A DNA stretch of 39,014 nt from a virus, in IMG/VR virus record IMGVR_UViG_3300009956_000004. The stretch is one strand, 5' to 3'. A program made the translations under genes and the position numbers. Numbering within the stretch: position 1 is the stretch's first letter; each line of letters begins with the position of its first letter. Below are positions 9,459 to 22,128 of the stretch, piece by piece. The notes under the pieces were generated by a model. That model searched no databases and was not told the origin of the DNA. It was given only the letters and a program-made list of their open reading frames with translations.

Positions 9459-10340
9459 ATGGATAAACTAAAACAAGTTATTCAGGCGATTGGGGTTGAT
9501 ATAGGTGCGCTTCAAGGGCAACAGACTTCCTTTTTATCAGCTTCTAAAGCATACGAACTATTTCCAACCTATGCAACTTTGCAATCCCAGATGGCCAATA
9601 ACATCAAAGAGAAGCACGTAGAACTTGGACTTGACGCTCTCATCGATGATAAATTAAAAAACGGTGGTGATCCGTTCGTCACGACTTCCAAATTGCCAAC
9701 GATTGACACAAGCCAGCTTGCGTCAAAAAACGATCTGGAAGAGTTGAAACGCTCAGTCGGATCTGGTAGCGGAGCTAGTGGCGAATTAAAAGGCCAAGGC
9801 TTCCCGTACAATCTTAACGCTGATATCGGTACAATATATACTGATACCACGGCAAAGAATGGAGCGGTGAAGTGGATCAAAAAGACCGCTGGAACTGGCT
9901 CTAACGCTTGGTCTGTCTTGTTTGGTGATGTCAAACACAAGCCAAGAATTTCATCGAGTCAAAACAACGCTTACGTAGAATTTAGACGTATAAACTCCAC
10001 GGTAGAGGTCGGCTTCGGTGGTCTATCGTGGGGTTGGTTTGGGATCGTAAGACGAGGTGCGCCCAGCTACGTTCCTCAAGGTTCAGACCGTGAGCGTAAC
10101 GTGGTGATTTTAAATGTTGGCGGTATACCCGTCGGTTTTCGTGCGACCAGCTCAAAACTGGGTATTATGACAAATGACAAGGGCAAGCGCCTTGGCACTT
10201 TCTATCTAGGTGGGCCGGGTGACGGCAACCAGCTACGCTTACAATTCGATGATCCCGTCCCAACAGATCGTGATATCGGAGACTTGCGGTTTACTGATAT
10301 GTCGTATATCACAGATGACCCGTGGCCGGAGACTTTATAA
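9459..10340 (+). CDS. Receptor-binding / tail fibre tip-like protein
   Basis: 293 aa, AAGGAGGTG RBS. GQGFPYNLNADIGTIYTDTTAKNGAVKWIKKTAGTGSNAWSVLFGD matches the G.G.P......G..Y.D.....GA..W.K..G.G..W motif common in minor tail/fibre proteins. Confidence 0.55.
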   Translation: MDKLKQVIQAIGVDIGALQGQQTSFLSASKAYELFPTYATLQSQMANNIKEKHVELGLDALIDDKLKNGGDPFVTTSKLPTIDTSQLASKNDLEELKRSVGSGSGASGELKGQGFPYNLNADIGTIYTDTTAKNGAVKWIKKTAGTGSNAWSVLFGDVKHKPRISSSQNNAYVEFRRINSTVEVGFGGLSWGWFGIVRRGAPSYVPQGSDRERNVVILNVGGIPVGFRATSSKLGIMTNDKGKRLGTFYLGGPGDGNQLRLQFDDPVPTDRDIGDLRFTDMSYITDDPWPETL

Positions 10341-10351
10341 TAAGATACACA

Positions 10352-10376
10352 CCCTCCCAATTCGGGAGGGTTTTTT
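10352..10376 (+). terminator. Rho-independent terminator ending the late/lysis operon
   Basis: CCCTCCC (10352-58) / GGGAGGG (10364-70), loop AATTC, then TTTTTT. Confidence 0.85.
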
Positions 10377-10380
10377 GTGT

Positions 10381-10417
10381 TTATAACGGCAATTTCAAAG
10401 ATTGTCTATTATAACGG
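10381..10417. repeat. Direct repeat TTATAACGG x2 (10381-89, 10409-17) in the attP region
   Basis: Read directly. Possible recombinase or accessory-factor binding sites. Confidence 0.4.
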
Positions 10418-10437
10418 AAAGTTTTAAAGATACGAAA

Positions 10438-10457
10438 GGGGCAAAAAAGGGGCAAAA
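10438..10457. repeat. GGGGCAAAAAAGGGGCAAAA, copy 1 (candidate integrase arm-type sites)
   Basis: Exact 20-nt repeat of 10655-10674. Each copy is itself two GGGGCAAAA units. Confidence 0.5.
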
Positions 10458-10596
10458 GTCCTGTTCTTATGTGTGATAATAGGTTATATTTTAAAGCACA
10501 AGTTCCTCGAAAACCCTTATTTTATGCGGTATATGTCTGCATGTGTTATTATCTGTTAACGAACGAACTTAAAGAAGCAGTTAAATAATTGCTCTT

Positions 10597-10647
10597 TAAA
10601 AAGCCTGCCATATCAAGCATTTCAGCTTGTATGACAGGCTTTTTTTG
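10597..10647. terminator. Bidirectional terminator-like hairpin downstream of int (may overlap the attP core)
   Basis: AGCCTGcCATatCAAGC (10602-18) pairs with GCTTGtATGaCAGGCT (10625-40). Flanked by AAAAA on the left and TTTTTTT on the right. Confidence 0.6.
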
Positions 10648-10654
10648 TGTCCAA

Positions 10655-10674
10655 GGGGCAAAAAAGGGGCAAAA
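10655..10674. repeat. GGGGCAAAAAAGGGGCAAAA, copy 2 (candidate integrase arm-type sites)
   Basis: Exact repeat of 10438-10457. Abuts the int stop codon. Confidence 0.5.
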
Positions 10675-10677
10675 CAT

Positions 10678-11820
10678 TTATAAACTATCCAGTAAGTCAA
10701 GAATGTTGTCGTCCATCTTCTTGGTCACATGCGTGTATATCTTGTTAGTAGTCCGAGAGTCAGAGTGGCCCACTCGTGACATTATGGCTTTCAGCGGGAC
10801 ATTATTCTCTGCCAGTCTGCTGACAAGCGTGTGTCTGAATATGTGAGATGTTAGATGCTTATCTATCGGTTTTTTTAACCTTTCATTCGCTCGCTTAATA
10901 GCCAAATTAAAAGAGTTATTCTGGATAGGAATGCCATTTTTGGTAACGAAGACAAAACCGAGATCAGTGAATCCCTCTCGTGTATTCTTTGACAATTCGT
11001 TGATCTGAATAAACTCTTTTAAAATTTCGATTTCTCTTTTCGAGAGTGAGACTGTCCGAAAACTTGCAACAGTTTTAGTTGTGGTTTTTAAACCCTTGGC
11101 ATATCCTACAGTTTTATCAAGTGTCCCGTGGATATGCACAATCTTCTTGTCAAAATCAATATTCTCTGGTTTGATTGCGATTGCTTCGCCTATCCTACAG
11201 CCATTATAGGCCATAAATTCTGCGAGCAGTCCGATTCTGTATGTTTTATCTGTTCTGTATAGTTCATCTAGTAATCTGCTCAATTCATCTGATTCGAGAA
11301 ATTTCTTTTCTGTCTTTTCTAAATCTTCCAGCGTCTTGACTAACTTTGGAAGTTTTGCCCTTCTAGCTGGGTTGTCCGAAATGTATTCCATGTTCACAGC
11401 ATAATCAAAACTTAGATTCAAGATCATCTTATATCGTTCTAACTTTGATCGACTAGCTTCACACTCGTTCAGAAATCTCTGAATATATTTCGCATCAACA
11501 TTTCTTATTTTTAAAGATAAATCGAAAACTTCTTTAAAGTCTTTTACGCTGCTTGAAAGGGAACTGACAGAACTACCCTTTATTTCTTTTTGATAAAATG
11601 TCCACCATTCATCAAGAATCTGACCATATTCCGCATCTGTTGACTTAATGCGCATCAGAGCTTCCTCTATACGACTGTCAAGAAGGTTTTGTGCTTCTTT
11701 CTTTGCTCGTGCAGATCCAGTATCTAGCGTGACAGATACCCTTTTCCATTTTTCTGTGTAAGGATCTTTGTATCTTTCAAAAAATTTATATTTGCCATTC
11801 GGTAGACTTTCGATCCACAT
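10678..11820 (-). CDS. int: Tyrosine integrase (phage integrase family)
   Basis: 380 aa. N-terminal SAM-like/arm-binding region MWIESLPNGKYKF.ERYKDPYT.KWKRVS. Catalytic region ..NGCRIGEA.., ..HIFRHTLVSRLAE.. and ..VGHSDSRTTNKIYTHVT (R..HxxR..Y). Confidence 0.95.
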   Translation of the reverse strand: MWIESLPNGKYKFFERYKDPYTEKWKRVSVTLDTGSARAKKEAQNLLDSRIEEALMRIKSTDAEYGQILDEWWTFYQKEIKGSSVSSLSSSVKDFKEVFDLSLKIRNVDAKYIQRFLNECEASRSKLERYKMILNLSFDYAVNMEYISDNPARRAKLPKLVKTLEDLEKTEKKFLESDELSRLLDELYRTDKTYRIGLLAEFMAYNGCRIGEAIAIKPENIDFDKKIVHIHGTLDKTVGYAKGLKTTTKTVASFRTVSLSKREIEILKEFIQINELSKNTREGFTDLGFVFVTKNGIPIQNNSFNLAIKRANERLKKPIDKHLTSHIFRHTLVSRLAENNVPLKAIMSRVGHSDSRTTNKIYTHVTKKMDDNILDLLDSL

Positions 11821-18404: not shown

Positions 18405-19061
18405 ATGTATGATACTACCGCAGAAGAGTGGAGGGATATCGTAGGGTACGAGGGTCTGTATAAAATCTCAAGCCACGGAAGAGTAAAAAGTTATCATGCA
18501 AGATATAAAAAGCCTAGAATTTTAAAAACTAGCATGACAACGACAGGCTATAGAAAAGTAGAACTCGCAAAAAACAAAGTAAAAAAGTCGCATAAAATCC
18601 ATAGGTTGGTGGCTGAGGCGTTCATTCCAAACGAAGGGAATAAACCCTATATAAATCACTTGGATAGTAACCCGCTAAATAATAATGTTAACAACCTAGA
18701 ATGGTGTACACAAAAAGAAAATATGGTTCATTCTGCTATTTTCGGAAATCATAAAAGTCTTGCGTGGAAAAATAAAGAACAAGTTGTAACTGATTATATA
18801 TCTGGCAAGTCTATCCGATATCTCGCTAAGAAGTACGCTGGAAATAGTTGCGTTACTATAAAGAACGTTTTAAAACGTGAAGGCGTAAGGATAAGAAGCG
18901 TTTCTGAACAAAAAATGAAATATAAATACTCTAGGGAGGAAATGTTGTCCATGTTTGAAGAAGGTCTAAGAAATGTAGACATAGCAAAAGAATTGGGAAT
19001 ACCTAGAGTGTTAGTCAACACTTATAAACATAAATGGAAGAATGGAGAGAAACTATGTTAA
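18405..19061 (+). CDS. Free-standing HNH homing endonuclease (NUMOD4 plus HNH_3 plus C-terminal HTH)
   Basis: [23 protein letters not shown] (NUMOD4). [35 protein letters not shown] (HNH). C-terminal ..[18 protein letters not shown].. Inserted between erf and ssb. Confidence 0.85.
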
Positions 19062-19471
19062 ATTCAACGTGCCTTGTTGGGCGCTTAACCAAAGATCCAG
19101 AACTACGCTACACACCAAACAATCAAGCGGTAGCAACTTTTAGCTTGGCAGTGAACCGAAACTTTAAAGGCCAGAATGGAGAGCGTGAAGCAGATTTTAT
19201 TAACTGCGTGATCTGGCGACAGCAAGCAGAAAATCTTGCAAACTGGGCCAAGAAAGGGGCTTTGATTGGGATTACGGGACGGATCCAGACACGGAGCTAC
19301 GAAAACCAGCAAGGCCAGCGGGTATATGTGACTGAGGTTGTAGCGGACAACTTCCAGCTATTGGAAGGTCGGAAAGATCGTGAAGCTGGACCGTCGCAGG
19401 GATATAGCCAGCCAGACTTCGCACGGCAGGCAGAGCCATTCAGCATTGATGATGATTCTCTACCGTTTTAG
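19055..19471 (+). CDS. ssb: Single-stranded DNA-binding protein
   Basis: [35 protein letters not shown].. OB fold with acidic tail ..DDDSLPF. ATG 19055 preferred (GGAGAG RBS) over the listed 19034. Confidence 0.95.
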
Positions 19472-20039: not shown

Positions 20040-20477
20040 ATGATTAAGTTAACAATACCTATCGAGCCAAAAGCCCAAACCCGCCCAAAATTTGGGCGAG
20101 GCGGGGCATACGAAGACCCGAAGATGAAAGCGTGGCGCAGATCAGCAACATACCTCATTAAAAGTCTATATAAAGGCGAGAAGATGCAAGGTTATCTTAA
20201 AGCAGAAGTCGCGTTTTATCTGAAAGCACCTCAAGTCGTATCGAAGAAACCCACGCCAAAAGCCAAGGCTAAAACGTGGGAACGATACGAACGATTTATG
20301 AATGAGCGAATATACTGCGCCAAGAAGCCAGACTTGGACAATTTGGAAAAAGCAATATATGACAGCATTTCAGACGCTAATTGCATTTGGTGGGACGATA
20401 ACCAAGTTGTAGAGCATACAACCAAAAAAGTCTACTCGCCAAATCCACGAATTGAAATCAAAATTAAAAAAATTTAG
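20040..20477 (+). CDS. rusA: RusA-family Holliday junction resolvase
   Basis: ..KKPDLDNLEKAIYDSISDANCIWWDDNQVVEHTTKKVYS.NPRIEIKI matches the RusA catalytic Asp motif. Confidence 0.85.
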   Translation: MIKLTIPIEPKAQTRPKFGRGGAYEDPKMKAWRRSATYLIKSLYKGEKMQGYLKAEVAFYLKAPQVVSKKPTPKAKAKTWERYERFMNERIYCAKKPDLDNLEKAIYDSISDANCIWWDDNQVVEHTTKKVYSPNPRIEIKIKKI

Positions 20478-20519: not shown

Positions 20520-20906
20520 ATGTCACTAGTGGAAGAATTTTTTAAACAATATGACGAGTTGGCTGGTAAATACGAGAAGTACGCTGAGGTATTTAAGAAT
20601 CAGGGCGCAGAACGACCTGCAGAAGTAGCAAAATATATTTCTTTGTCGAGAAGAAAAAACGAGATGCCGTCTCCGATTTATTTGATTTATTTTGACGGAT
20701 TGCTAAATGATGAATTTCTTTTAGAGTGTATGGACTACTATTTAGAAAATACCAAAAGGAAATCTAGGGCAGCGAAAGAAACAAGGGAACAATTCGCAGA
20801 AATGGATGACAATTCTAACAAAAGCATCATACTTAAAAAGCCAAGTAAGAGACGGGTAGCAATAAAGGAATATTACATAGAACGCGCTTTAAAGCTAGGT
20901 CTTTAA
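20520..20906 (+). CDS. Hypothetical protein
   Basis: 128 aa, GAGGGTG RBS. No family recognised. Confidence 0.65.
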   Translation: MSLVEEFFKQYDELAGKYEKYAEVFKNQGAERPAEVAKYISLSRRKNEMPSPIYLIYFDGLLNDEFLLECMDYYLENTKRKSRAAKETREQFAEMDDNSNKSIILKKPSKRRVAIKEYYIERALKLGL

Positions 20907-20911
20907 TTCAG

Positions 20912-20949
20912 GCTGGCAGACTCTAACAGGTCTGCTAGTCATACCTCAC
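20912..20949. repeat. Imperfect direct repeat, left copy (GCTGGC..AGACTC..GCTAGTCATacCTCAC)
   Basis: Shares the blocks GCTGGC, AGACTC and GCTAGTCATnnCTCAC, in the same order, with 21317-21373. Confidence 0.6.
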
Positions 20950-21249
20950 AAACAATAAAATAAGACACTGATGCGAAGCGAGTGAGGCGCTTCAAATTGA
21001 ATCGTGATAAAACTACTGGTTTTATGCCTTAACACACGGTTCAAAAAAACTGTATATCAACCGATAAATAATAAAGGAGAGTCCTCTTTTTCACAAATTT
21101 ACATACAAGTAAGTCTGATATACGCTTACGACCAGATCAGCAAGACTGCATAGGTCAGTAATGATGATAGTTCATAGTGATGCTGCTGATCCATCACGTC
21201 CTATGCTGGGCGAGACTTGGAAACCTCAGAGGGTTCGATTCCCTCTATA

Positions 21250-21270
21250 GGATTAGGACGGGATTAGGAC
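21250..21270. repeat. Tandem repeat GGATTAGGAC-g-GGATTAGGAC
   Basis: Read directly. Begins inside the acceptor-like 3' strand of the tRNA-like element. Confidence 0.8.
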
Positions 21271-21316
21271 TCATTATGATACATTCTTTATTTCACACTA
21301 TCGACCCGTCCCGATA

Positions 21317-21373
21317 GCTGGCTAGCTGTAGACTCCTTGAGTAGTGCAACTCCACTCGCTAGTCATTGCTCAC
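21317..21373. repeat. Imperfect direct repeat, right copy (GCTGGCtagctgtAGACTC..GCTAGTCATtgCTCAC)
   Basis: See the left copy. The spacing between blocks is expanded. Confidence 0.6.
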
Positions 21374-21414
21374 TATAAATTTAGAAAGGCCCTCTAATCT
21401 GTTTTTCTGAAAAA

Positions 21415-21440
21415 GGGGAGCAGAGCAACTCCCCTATTTT
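21415..21440 (+). terminator. Rho-independent terminator
   Basis: GGGGAG (21415-20) / CTCCCC (21429-34), 8-nt loop, then TATTTT. Confidence 0.7.
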
Positions 21441-21462
21441 AGTAAAGTAGATAGAGATTATT

Positions 21463-22128
21463 ATGGAAATTGATTTAATTAAACGGTCAATCAGACTGGA
21501 TCGACAGCGACTTCAAGATACGAGTAGTGATCTACTCATACAAAAAAACATCGGCAAAACAGCAGTGGTTGGAAGATCACGAGCAATTAAGGAAAGGATT
21601 AATAAAAATATCATGGCATTGGAAAAGGAATTAGTAACGTTAACAAAGAAATGGTTTATTGACCGTGATTTGGAACACGGTGGACGATTAGACAAGCAGG
21701 CTCTTAAATTGAGTGAGGAATTTGGCGAGCTATGCGCTGGATATCTTAAGCGAAATGAGAAACTAACTAAGGATAGTATTGGTGATTGTGCGGTGGTTAT
21801 TGTAGGACTTGCATTACTAATTAAGGAGGATGTGCATGGTATCTTTGAGGAATCAGACAACATCAGACGCAAGGATGCGATGGAATGTTTTAAATTGTTA
21901 AATGCAAACATTTCTGAGTTTCAACTATCGCAAGAGTTGGCAAGCAAAGAAATGTGCCGTCATAATCTAATACGTGCGGTGGCTTATCTTAAATCTATTA
22001 GTAAGGCATTCGACTACGACTTTGCGGATTGCTTTGAGGTGGCATATAACGAAATCAAAGACCGCAAAGGTAAATGGATTGATGGAAGTTTTGTGAAAGA
22101 GGAGGATCTGGAAAGTGAACCGAATTAA
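21463..22128 (+). CDS. MazG-like nucleotide pyrophosphohydrolase-fold protein with a ~60-aa N-terminal coiled-coil extension
   Basis: ..QALKLSEEFGELCAGYLKRN.., ..IGDCAVVIVGLALL.. and ..CFEVAYNEIKDRKGKWIDGSFVK fit the all-alpha NTP-PPase (MazG-like) pattern. The start is uncertain: the alternative Met at 21613 and the listed start both have weak RBSs. Confidence 0.6.
   Translation: MEIDLIKRSIRLDRQRLQDTSSDLLIQKNIGKTAVVGRSRAIKERINKNIMALEKELVTLTKKWFIDRDLEHGGRLDKQALKLSEEFGELCAGYLKRNEKLTKDSIGDCAVVIVGLALLIKEDVHGIFEESDNIRRKDAMECFKLLNANISEFQLSQELASKEMCRHNLIRAVAYLKSISKAFDYDFADCFEVAYNEIKDRKGKWIDGSFVKEEDLESEPN

Follow-up and report, generated by a model that had tools for sequence, protein, structure and literature searches.

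The viral DNA analysed here (IMG/VR record IMGVR_UViG_3300009956_000004; 39,014 nucleotides [nt], referred to below as the window) comes, by its gene content, from a temperate siphophage of Streptococcus. Ahead of its gene for a MazG-like pyrophosphatase is a stretch without genes that encodes, almost certainly, a real and conserved structured RNA, read from the + strand and belonging to a class outside Rfam 15:

20907-21440, + strand: structured-RNA interval, within the 556-nt gene-free gap 20907-21462

The class is previously uncatalogued, and is large (350-560 nt), modular, and highly structured. Its function is a separate question; the preferred reading, to which we would give a probability of roughly 0.4, is that of a cis-acting leader for the MazG-like gene, working through processing and attenuation.

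There is little room for a protein in this gap. The longest open reading frames (ORFs) touching 20907-21462 encode 49 (21004-21153, GTG start), 46, and 32 amino acids (aa), and a search for a conserved ORF in 41 distinct homologous intervals found none, the stop-free stretches differing among them in frame and place. The initial annotation of this DNA had described the interval as devoid of coding capacity, densely self-complementary, and closed by a terminator, and had proposed a large structured non-coding RNA; all of this has held up, the last through covariation across homologues. The self-complementarity exceeds that of shuffled sequence, with + strand z-scores from -4.3 to -5.0: for 20907-21445 the predicted minimum free energy is -155 kcal/mol on this strand (z = -4.28; none of 100 dinucleotide shuffles as good), and z = -2.36 on the - strand. 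When the whole window is tiled with 539-nt pieces, the interval scores z = -5.0 and is equalled by just one tile, in a putative attP/terminator region at 10201 (z = -5.1); the other 22 tiles lie between +0.6 and -3.5.

Homologues and covariation

Homologues were sought at loci coding for relatives of the downstream protein. Among the best 80 of 447 such IMG/VR relatives, the interval lies directly upstream of the MazG-like gene in 54 loci, of which 41 are distinct (69-88% identity). Exact-pattern scans added a further 39 IMG/VR contigs, 66 metagenome stretches, nearly all of these with the full RNA, and the genomes of Streptococcus gingivalis S2 (NZ_JAYKTO010000002.1; RNA at L090:5201-5680) and of two metagenome-assembled Streptococcus, all three being species representatives, for a total of 63 distinct full-length versions of 350-560 nt; the metagenome loci that bring the set to 63 contributed few new helix haplotypes. 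The range is narrow: one lineage, of oral-type Streptococcus temperate phages.

The main alignment has 40 sequences, with later counts made on up to 63. For the former, RNAalifold predicts 82 pairs, 27 with compensatory changes. A hand model of 18 helices and 123 pairs, including pseudoknots, was counted on the same alignment against controls in which partners were slid by 1-3 columns, and against 500 column shuffles. Standard pairs fill 95.2% of the model's cells (37-45% in the slid controls), and 39 of the 123 pairs show changes on both sides (3-8 in the slid controls; 24.4 +/- 2.1 in the shuffles, 0 of 500 reaching 39); the covariation score is 0.198, vs. 0.04-0.05 for the slid controls. 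By this measure, covariation across the 40-63 homologues, which had been suggested as a check on the original proposal, is strong. The most compensated helices are P9 (6 of 8 pairs), P10 (4 of 6), and an acceptor-like stem (4 of 7), followed by P5, P7, P3, and the pseudoknot PKb with 3 pairs each. Because the sequences are related, with two to five haplotypes per helix, there were fewer independent events than the cell counts imply. Loci combine the helix alleles in different ways, either acceptor allele being found with either P9 allele, and the helix changes are therefore not one linked event. The functional strand is fixed as + by the many conserved G-U pairs of P1, P5, P9, and the acceptor stem, whose counterparts on the - strand are C-A.

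These results bear on the alternative that there is no RNA element here, and that the interval is instead the remnant of a gene, or an element that works as DNA, such as an origin of replication or a packaging site, with many inverted repeats. Phage origins are often non-coding and repeat-rich, and the location would suit one, adjoining the 3′ side of a replication and recombination module (DnaD-like, DnaC-like, Erf, SSB, RusA). However, at least 14 helices are kept paired by compensatory changes, many + strand G-U pairs become C-A on the other strand, and the pseudoknots covary as well; a decayed gene is further disfavored by the lack of any reading frame conserved among the 41 distinct intervals, and an origin by the lack of iterons in the interval, which has just short two-copy direct repeats. 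Such an explanation is all but excluded.

Architecture of the RNA

The helices and pseudoknots outside the tRNA-like element and the 3′ end are as follows, from 5′ to 3′. Modules are given by their outer limits.

20911-22 with 20929-40, + strand: P1, a 12-bp 5′ hairpin; 99.8% of cells paired, 3 double-change pairs
20944-49 with 20982-87, + strand: PK0, CCTCAC with the P2 loop GTGAGG; module 20944..20993
20975-80 with 20988-93, + strand: P2; 98% paired
20999-21006 with 21035-42, + strand: P3; 98.7% paired, 3 double-change pairs; optional module 20999..21042
21007-13 with 21019-25, + strand: P3a, enclosed by P3; conserved, no covariation
21052-59 with 21116-23, + strand: PKa, GTATATCA with the P5 loop TGATATAC; module 21052..21129
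21073-78 with 21082-88, + strand: P4, a small hairpin carrying a Shine-Dalgarno (SD)-like AAAGGAG; 2 double changes
21109-13 with 21125-29, + strand: P5; 3 of 5 pairs with double changes
21135-42 with 21184-91, + strand: PKb, GATCAGCA with the P7 loop TGCTGATC; 3 double-change pairs; optional module 21135..21197
21144-56, + strand: P6, a hypervariable hairpin
21177-82 with 21192-97, + strand: P7; 100% paired, 3 double-change pairs
21256-62 with 21305-11, + strand: PKc, GGACGGG with the P8 loop CCCGTCC; module 21256..21318
21297-303 with 21312-18, + strand: P8; 99% paired
21319-26 with 21358-65, + strand: P9; 100% paired, 6 of 8 double-change pairs
21339-44 with 21352-57, + strand: P10; 4 of 6 double-change pairs

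P1 forms a constant 5′ boundary. Beyond it come five modules built alike: nearly all of a hairpin's loop is paired to a strand that lies 30-55 nt upstream. In the 45 sequences counted for PK0, pairing is 100% (43-71% after sliding), with a single compensatory change, in locus L017; PKa is nearly invariant (98% paired, one double change); and PKc, 96-97% paired, has two compensatory changes (GGACGGG/CCCGTCC vs. GGGCTGG/CCAGCCC). Among the simple helices, P5 occurs as GTAAG/CTTAC, GGAAA/TTTCC, or GGGAA/TTCCC; P6 has a self-complementary sequence that differs between loci; and P9 and P10 have at least four distinct helix haplotypes, with pairing kept in all of them. The 7-nt P10 loop, YGCRAYN, is T-loop-like.

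The initial annotation listed ten pairings read by eye. All are present in the sequence, and eight are conserved in the homologues, most of them covarying: 20913/20930, 20975/20988, 21007/21019, 21109/21125, 21177/21192, 21229/21241, GGACGGG/CCCGTCC, and 21298/21312. Its suspicion of a pseudoknot, with GGACGGG pairing into the CTATCG/CGATAG hairpin, was right as well, this being PKc, one of the five modules, although its coordinates were one base off (GGACGGG is at 21256-62). The remaining two pairings were not conserved as drawn. AAAGGAG/CTCTTTT does mark a hairpin, P4, but in the wrong register, AAAGGA 21073-78 with TCCT-TT 21082-88 being better; and GCATAGG 21148-54/CCTATGC 21200-06 is specific to the window, is 66% paired in homologues, and competes with the covarying acceptor-like stem. 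Missing from the list were P3, P9, P10, P11, two stems of the tRNA-like element (the acceptor-like and the second), and four of the five pseudoknots.

Several sequences within this framework have features of their own. The PKb module holds a conserved AAUGAUGAUAGUUCA; it also has a conserved AAUGAUGA (21160-21167) and a CUGA (21186-21189) that resemble the box C and box D halves of a kink-turn, a resemblance that probably accounts for some weak Rfam SNORD matches. The linker in the PKc module is variable and U-rich, with one or two copies of an anti-SD-like CUCCUUAU, the window's copy being mutated to CTCATTAT (21270-77). Two SD-like sequences without a start codon lie in hairpins, AAAGGAG (21073-21079) and AGAAAGG (21383-21389). 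Two long-range pairings are conceivable, AAGGAG 21074-79 with CTCCTT 21270-75 (97-99% complementary in homologues) and GTCCT 21081-85 with AGGAC 21255-59 (conserved), but both are invariant and hence unproven.

Not all homologues have every part. The P2-P3 and PKb/P6/P7 modules are missing in some; among individual natural variants, L017 lacks PKa-PKb, L087 half of the tRNA-like element, and L014 P8-P10, with the junction and terminator retained.

A tRNA-like three-way junction

Between PKb and PKc the RNA forms an element resembling part of a tRNA:

21199-21252, + strand: tRNA-like three-way junction
21199-205 with 21246-52, + strand: acceptor-like stem, 7 bp; 4 double-change pairs
3′ of the acceptor-like stem's 5′ strand, + strand: linker of 5-6 nt with a conserved GG
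21211-15 with 21224-28, + strand: second stem, 5 bp, with loop YUUGGAAA
21229-33 with 21241-45, + strand: T-stem, 5 bp; 100% paired, 1 double change

The acceptor-like stem has the alleles TCCTATG/TATAGGA and GGTTATG/CATAACC. The T-loop is TTCGATT in the window and TTCGAYT in the homologues, giving a canonical T-arm, GGTTCGAYTCC. The 7 + 5 bp stack, followed by a U after the discriminator position, thus combines a covarying acceptor/T stack with a canonical T-loop, substantiating an earlier hint of tRNA-like sequence here. There is no D-arm, variable region, or encoded CCA. The sole related Rfam match is to tRNA-Sec, at 15-16 bits (gathering score 47), over 21198-21253 and with the D and anticodon arms deleted; ARAGORN recognizes no full cloverleaf, and calls no tRNA or transfer-messenger RNA (tmRNA), at this site in the window or in 8 homologous loci.

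One possible reading of this element is as a tRNA mimic that serves the phage in its arms race, as decoy, sponge, or inhibitor, against a tRNA-directed nuclease of the host or another tRNA-binding factor. UUGGAAA would be its anticodon-like loop, the pseudoknots a stabilizing scaffold, and the MazG-like enzyme a partner in counter-defense. Phages carry tRNAs that counter anticodon nucleases, and this RNA is co-inherited with a nucleotide pyrophosphatase gene; its T-arm matches exactly, and both UGGAA in the loop and GG in the linker are conserved amid covarying stems. As a copy of a complete tRNA, however, it is a poor one, with no D-arm and an 8-9 nt loop; the acceptor stem is free to vary, so that there is no aminoacylation identity; variant L087 lacks half of the element; and the data indicate no particular defense system. 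We think a mimic quite unlikely.

The 3′ end

The RNA ends in a region that is partly invariant:

21366-89, + strand: 24-nt junction TTGCTCACTATAAATTTAGAAAGG, the longest invariant stretch in 40 sequences
21367-71 with 21423-27, + strand: PKd, TGCTC with GAGCA in the terminator loop; paired in 63/63
21380-90 with 21401-11, + strand: P11 hairpin; 86-88% paired, no clear covariation
21414-21440, + strand: intrinsic terminator, AGGGGAG 21414-20 with CTCCCCT 21429-35, loop CAGAGCAA, then TATTTT

A terminator scan recovers the annotated terminator (21414-21435; 7 pairs, 5 of them G-C; a loop of 8, then ATTTTAG), and its stem covaries (3 double-change pairs). There are two 3′-end haplotypes, with stems GGGGAG/CTCCCC and AGAGGG/CCCTCT; TTTT is kept in both, and the loop GAGCAA and the upstream TTGCTC are unchanged. 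The P11 loop CCCTCT (21390-95) can pair instead with AGGGG (21414-18), making a candidate antiterminator, which is 89% paired and is predicted both by RNAalifold and by folds without the terminator 3′ arm. In such folds of both haplotypes, the P11 loop (CCCTCT or GTCTTCT) pairs with the terminator 5′ arm, and the TTGCTC/GAGCA helix closes the alternative structure. The terminator stem, the candidate competitor strand, and the 3′ arm differ between haplotypes yet stay mutually complementary. In these predicted folds, the 3′ end looks like a terminator/antiterminator pair.

This suggests, as another possibility, a ligand-sensing riboswitch or a protein-dependent antitermination system, with the 3′ domain (P8-P11 and the invariant junction) as the sensor and the 5′ modules as accessories. 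The layout of aptamer, terminator, weak ribosome-binding site, and ORF is the classical one, the 24-nt junction beside the terminator and the possible antiterminator fit, and enzymes of the MazG family act on nucleotides sensed by known riboswitches. Variant L014, however, lacks P8-P10 yet keeps the junction and terminator; covariation support stops at two haplotypes; there is no match to an Rfam riboswitch; and no ligand can be inferred. Like a tRNA decoy, a sensor of this kind seems rather improbable, and both are less likely than a cis-acting leader or the trans-acting RNA considered below.

Searches for known RNA families

The initial annotation left open whether the interval belongs to one of the large ornate RNA classes ROOL and GOLLD or to a new class, and recommended comparison with Rfam models of these and of tmRNA, tRNA, ribozymes, and introns. 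None of these models gave a family assignment, and the new class stands, with ROOL and GOLLD excluded at the level of Rfam covariance models. At the gathering threshold nothing in the whole window matches Rfam 15. At E ≤ 10 with permissive filters, a search of 20700-21600 and of the divergent homologue L081 gave, apart from the weak tRNA-Sec, chance-level matches (plant plastid untranslated regions [UTRs], microRNAs) landing on the T-arm or terminator. In neither search was there a match to ROOL (RF03087) or to GOLLD (RF01998), its conserved 3′ half included, nor to tmRNA, T-box, riboswitch, ribozyme, or intron models.

Two of these merit a further word. For tmRNA, ARAGORN finds none, both acceptor-like strands lie within 54 nt, and a tag reading frame is absent. 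A group I or II intron is discounted by the lack of an Rfam match and by the position of the interval between complete genes, the upstream one varying by locus.

A blastn search of the interval against 50,697 GenBank phage records found no match. The literature searched contains no account of this RNA, as far as the sources were accessible; short pieces of it may be among the unnamed candidates in large surveys of viral or microbiome RNAs, two csRNA surveys included, one of which had no sequence match within the first 200 of its 408 files. The RNA does share the general properties of the ROOL/GOLLD kind, being over 400 nt long in its fuller versions, with many covarying helices and pseudoknots, and encoded by phages or prophages.

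Linkage to the MazG-like gene

The genes on either side of the RNA in the window are:

20520..20906, + strand: upstream gene, 128 aa, PHROG 1921, function not assigned; context, outside the RNA
21463..22128, + strand: MazG-like pyrophosphatase gene, 221 aa, PHROG 1992 (E = 2e-64)

They differ greatly in constancy. At least five unrelated genes are found upstream among the loci (several families of ~120 aa, an LPXTG surface protein of 526-558 aa, and others), always with the stop codon 3-13 nt before P1. Downstream of all instances of the RNA is the same MazG-like gene, starting 22-27 nt past the terminator and with a weak Shine-Dalgarno sequence. Its product has a conserved Arg/Lys-rich N-terminal extension of ~50 aa. 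A covariance model built from 21196-21377 matches all loci with the extended gene, at 134-220 bits, and none of 33 retrieved loci in which the MazG-like gene starts to match at residue ~41 and hence lacks the extension; in two of the latter that were inspected (L060, L076), the gene is 167-168 aa long and starts 12 nt after the preceding one. Because the model matches extended-gene loci only, while upstream genes vary, the RNA and the N-terminal extension are one inherited module, tied to the downstream and not to the upstream gene.

The extension alone has no Pfam match, and a protein search with it found only short, frameshift-truncated versions from the same phage group. Its coding sequence includes an A7 run (21542-21548, codons 27-29 of the ORF) and a second A-rich run near codons 46-48. 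Among 73 distinct homologous gene starts, the first run is A7, in frame, in 52, A8 in 9, A6 in 4, and A9 in 1, the off-length runs breaking the frame after ~30 codons; protein databases contain stand-alone extensions of 55-81 aa that overlap a separately called MazG core of 169-171 aa. This variation could be due to phase variation, slippage, decay, or assembly error.

In four of the loci (L010, L023, L027, L035) the gene immediately ahead of the RNA, with its end 3 nt away, is that for the LPXTG-anchored surface protein (526-558 aa), which has the look of an inserted moron.

A search for promoters found none from the upstream stop codon to P1, nor any conserved site resembling one within the RNA. 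Since P1 starts 3-13 nt past the upstream stop, the RNA can be transcribed only within the rightward early operon or from an unrecognized promoter.

This bears directly on a further alternative, that of a discrete and abundant trans-acting RNA of the ROOL/GOLLD kind, though not homologous to these, which would be freed from the operon transcript or have its own promoter. Some of its five loop-strand pairings could then be intermolecular bridges, creating a multimer that would display or enclose the tRNA-like domain or the U-rich linker. Size and ornateness fit, as do a Lactobacillales prophage source, the terminator at the end, the variable and weakly structured linker within a conserved fold, and the tRNA genes that related phages have ~3 kb downstream. 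The loop-strand pairings leave almost no spare loop nucleotides, five times over, and in ROOL and GOLLD the loop-junction pairings found by covariation proved to be intermolecular bridges (PMC12286853). Set against this are the missing promoter, before P1 or inside; the strict linkage to one downstream gene variant; the absence of any sequence or structure match to ROOL or GOLLD; the dispensability of modules in natural variants; and a very narrow range (39 IMG/VR contigs, 66 metagenome stretches, and 3 species-representative genomes). A trans-acting RNA is nearly as likely as a cis-acting one.

A related but more specific suggestion is a self-assembling RNA scaffold or cage displaying tRNA-like domains, bridged at least in part by the loop-strand pairings, or else a ribonucleoprotein (RNP) formed with the Arg/Lys extension of the MazG-like protein, that would capture host tRNA-handling or translation factors. 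This is unlikely.

A proposed processing and attenuation leader

The cis-acting leader for the MazG-like gene is favored because of the strict linkage to one downstream gene variant, because of the aptamer-like position before a terminator and a weak ribosome-binding site, and because no promoter was found. As we picture it, the tRNA-like element would serve as a handle for host tRNA-processing enzymes. An acceptor/T-arm minihelix satisfies the requirements of RNase P and RNase Z, and there are precedents for a tRNA-like processing signal in MALAT1/mascRNA and the P1/P7 C4 RNA precursor. With RNase P cleaving at ~21198/21199 and RNase Z after 21253, the early transcript would be divided, and its new ends may be shielded from exonucleases by the pseudoknot modules immediately next to the cuts, P7/PKb 5′ of the element and PKc/P8 3′ of it. 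The P11/terminator region would toggle between a terminator fold and an antiterminator one, in which CCCTCT pairs with AGGGG and TTGCTC with GAGCAA closes the structure; the balance would determine what share of transcription continues into the MazG-like gene and those beyond it. The MazG-like protein might provide feedback by binding RNA through its Arg/Lys-rich extension.

A number of points weigh against this proposal. Processing, termination, and read-through are all predictions. A single nucleotide separates P7 from the acceptor-like stem, which may be an obstacle to RNase P, and the role of the tRNA-like junction might be structural only, as a T-loop module. To our knowledge, ~500 nt with 18 helices far exceeds the needs of any attenuator, and natural variants (L014, L087, L017) do without whole modules. 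At the 3′ end, the antiterminator rests on two haplotypes, which amount to one evolutionary event; P11 is without covariation; and PKd, invariant on both sides, is beyond the reach of covariation and thus unproven, as are the similarly invariant SD/anti-SD complementarities. Finally, with all instances in one narrow phage lineage, the RNA and the MazG-like gene could be constant neighbors by common descent and not for a functional reason.

Gene neighborhood

Other parts of the window agree with its assignment to a temperate phage. A megablast search with 16 kb around the interval gave only short mosaic matches, all to Streptococcus “Javan” prophages. Further genes encode a CI-like repressor, an excisionase, DnaD-like and DnaC-like loaders, Gam, Erf, and an HNH endonuclease; those 3′ of the MazG-like gene encode a helix-turn-helix protein, two DUF1642 proteins, YopX, a late activator, and the small terminase subunit. 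Those with coordinates assigned are:

10678-11820, - strand: integrase
18405-19061: HNH endonuclease, in the recombination module, with the Erf-like and SSB genes on either side
19034-19471: SSB
20040-20477: RusA

The region from the lysis module to the integrase (10340-10680) has two terminator hairpins and a direct repeat, AAAGGGGCAAAAAAGGGGCAAAA, at ~10427 and ~10653, and its folding z-score, -5.1, is as extreme as that of the RNA interval. It is probably an ordinary attP with integrase arm sites.

ARAGORN calls no tRNA gene anywhere in the window. In related phages, ~3 kb downstream of the RNA, it calls a tRNA-Lys(UUU) (L033:6146-6221) and an odd tRNA with a two-base anticodon call (L011:6064-6135).

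Comparison with known RNAs

Very few large ornate RNA classes from bacteria and phages are known to us (OLE, GOLLD, ROOL, HEARO, and raiA). Each has raised new questions on what RNA can do without protein, and the present one brings a near-repetitive building principle, with five serial loop-strand pseudoknots around a tRNA-derived junction. Its size, ~0.5 kb with deletion variants of 0.35 kb, is small enough for structural work; the tie to a MazG-like pyrophosphatase with an Arg-rich extension gives a concrete functional handle that is absent for ROOL and GOLLD; and its presence in a cultured strain, Streptococcus gingivalis S2, makes the competing mechanisms directly testable. The narrow distribution limits its general importance. 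Were it an RNA machine or RNP, the phage would gain an RNA-based means to capture or manipulate host tRNA-handling or translation factors.

Leaders of the T-box and riboswitch type similarly have a terminator just before an ORF, possible alternative pairing, and T-loop motifs; the present RNA is 2-5 times larger, has no Rfam match, and has no identified specifier or T-box sequence. With MALAT1/mascRNA and the P1/P7 C4 precursor it has in common a tRNA-like fold within a longer transcript. In those RNAs the fold directs processing by RNase P (and RNase Z), and structured elements guard the new ends. They are eukaryotic or enterobacterial, however, with no sequence relation to this RNA, for which processing is a proposal.

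The combination of a pseudoknot series with a tRNA-like domain, one with an acceptor/T-arm stack and a D-arm that is reduced or absent, recalls the 3′ UTRs of tobamoviruses and tymoviruses, and tmRNA. Here, by contrast, the domain is internal, with no CCA, a varying acceptor sequence, and no tag frame, and it belongs to the transcript of a DNA phage instead of the end of a genome. Flavivirus exonuclease-resistant RNA (xrRNA) and dumbbell arrays, and Firmicute 5′ stabilizers such as STAB-SD, protect flanking RNA from exonucleases by means of pseudoknot modules in tandem or SD-like sequences that lack a start codon, and the present RNA, which may do likewise, contains both. It has no homology to them, and its loops pair with an upstream and not a downstream strand.

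ROOL and GOLLD are the closest in general character. In both, loop-to-junction pairings first found by covariation are intermolecular bridges of RNA cages; tRNAs are sometimes located in the GOLLD linker, and both RNAs occur near tRNA islands in phages (PMC12286853). The present RNA is like them in being large, ornate, pseudoknotted, and associated with tRNA, in its source in phages and prophages of Lactobacillales and relatives, in its covariation-found loop pairings, and in its variable internal linker (PMC12286853). It differs in having no covariance-model match to them at E ≤ 10 and a far narrower range; in its five serial loop-strand modules; in a D-arm-less tRNA-like element that is integral to the fold, where theirs is a neighboring tRNA gene; and in its place within an operon, where it directly precedes one particular gene.

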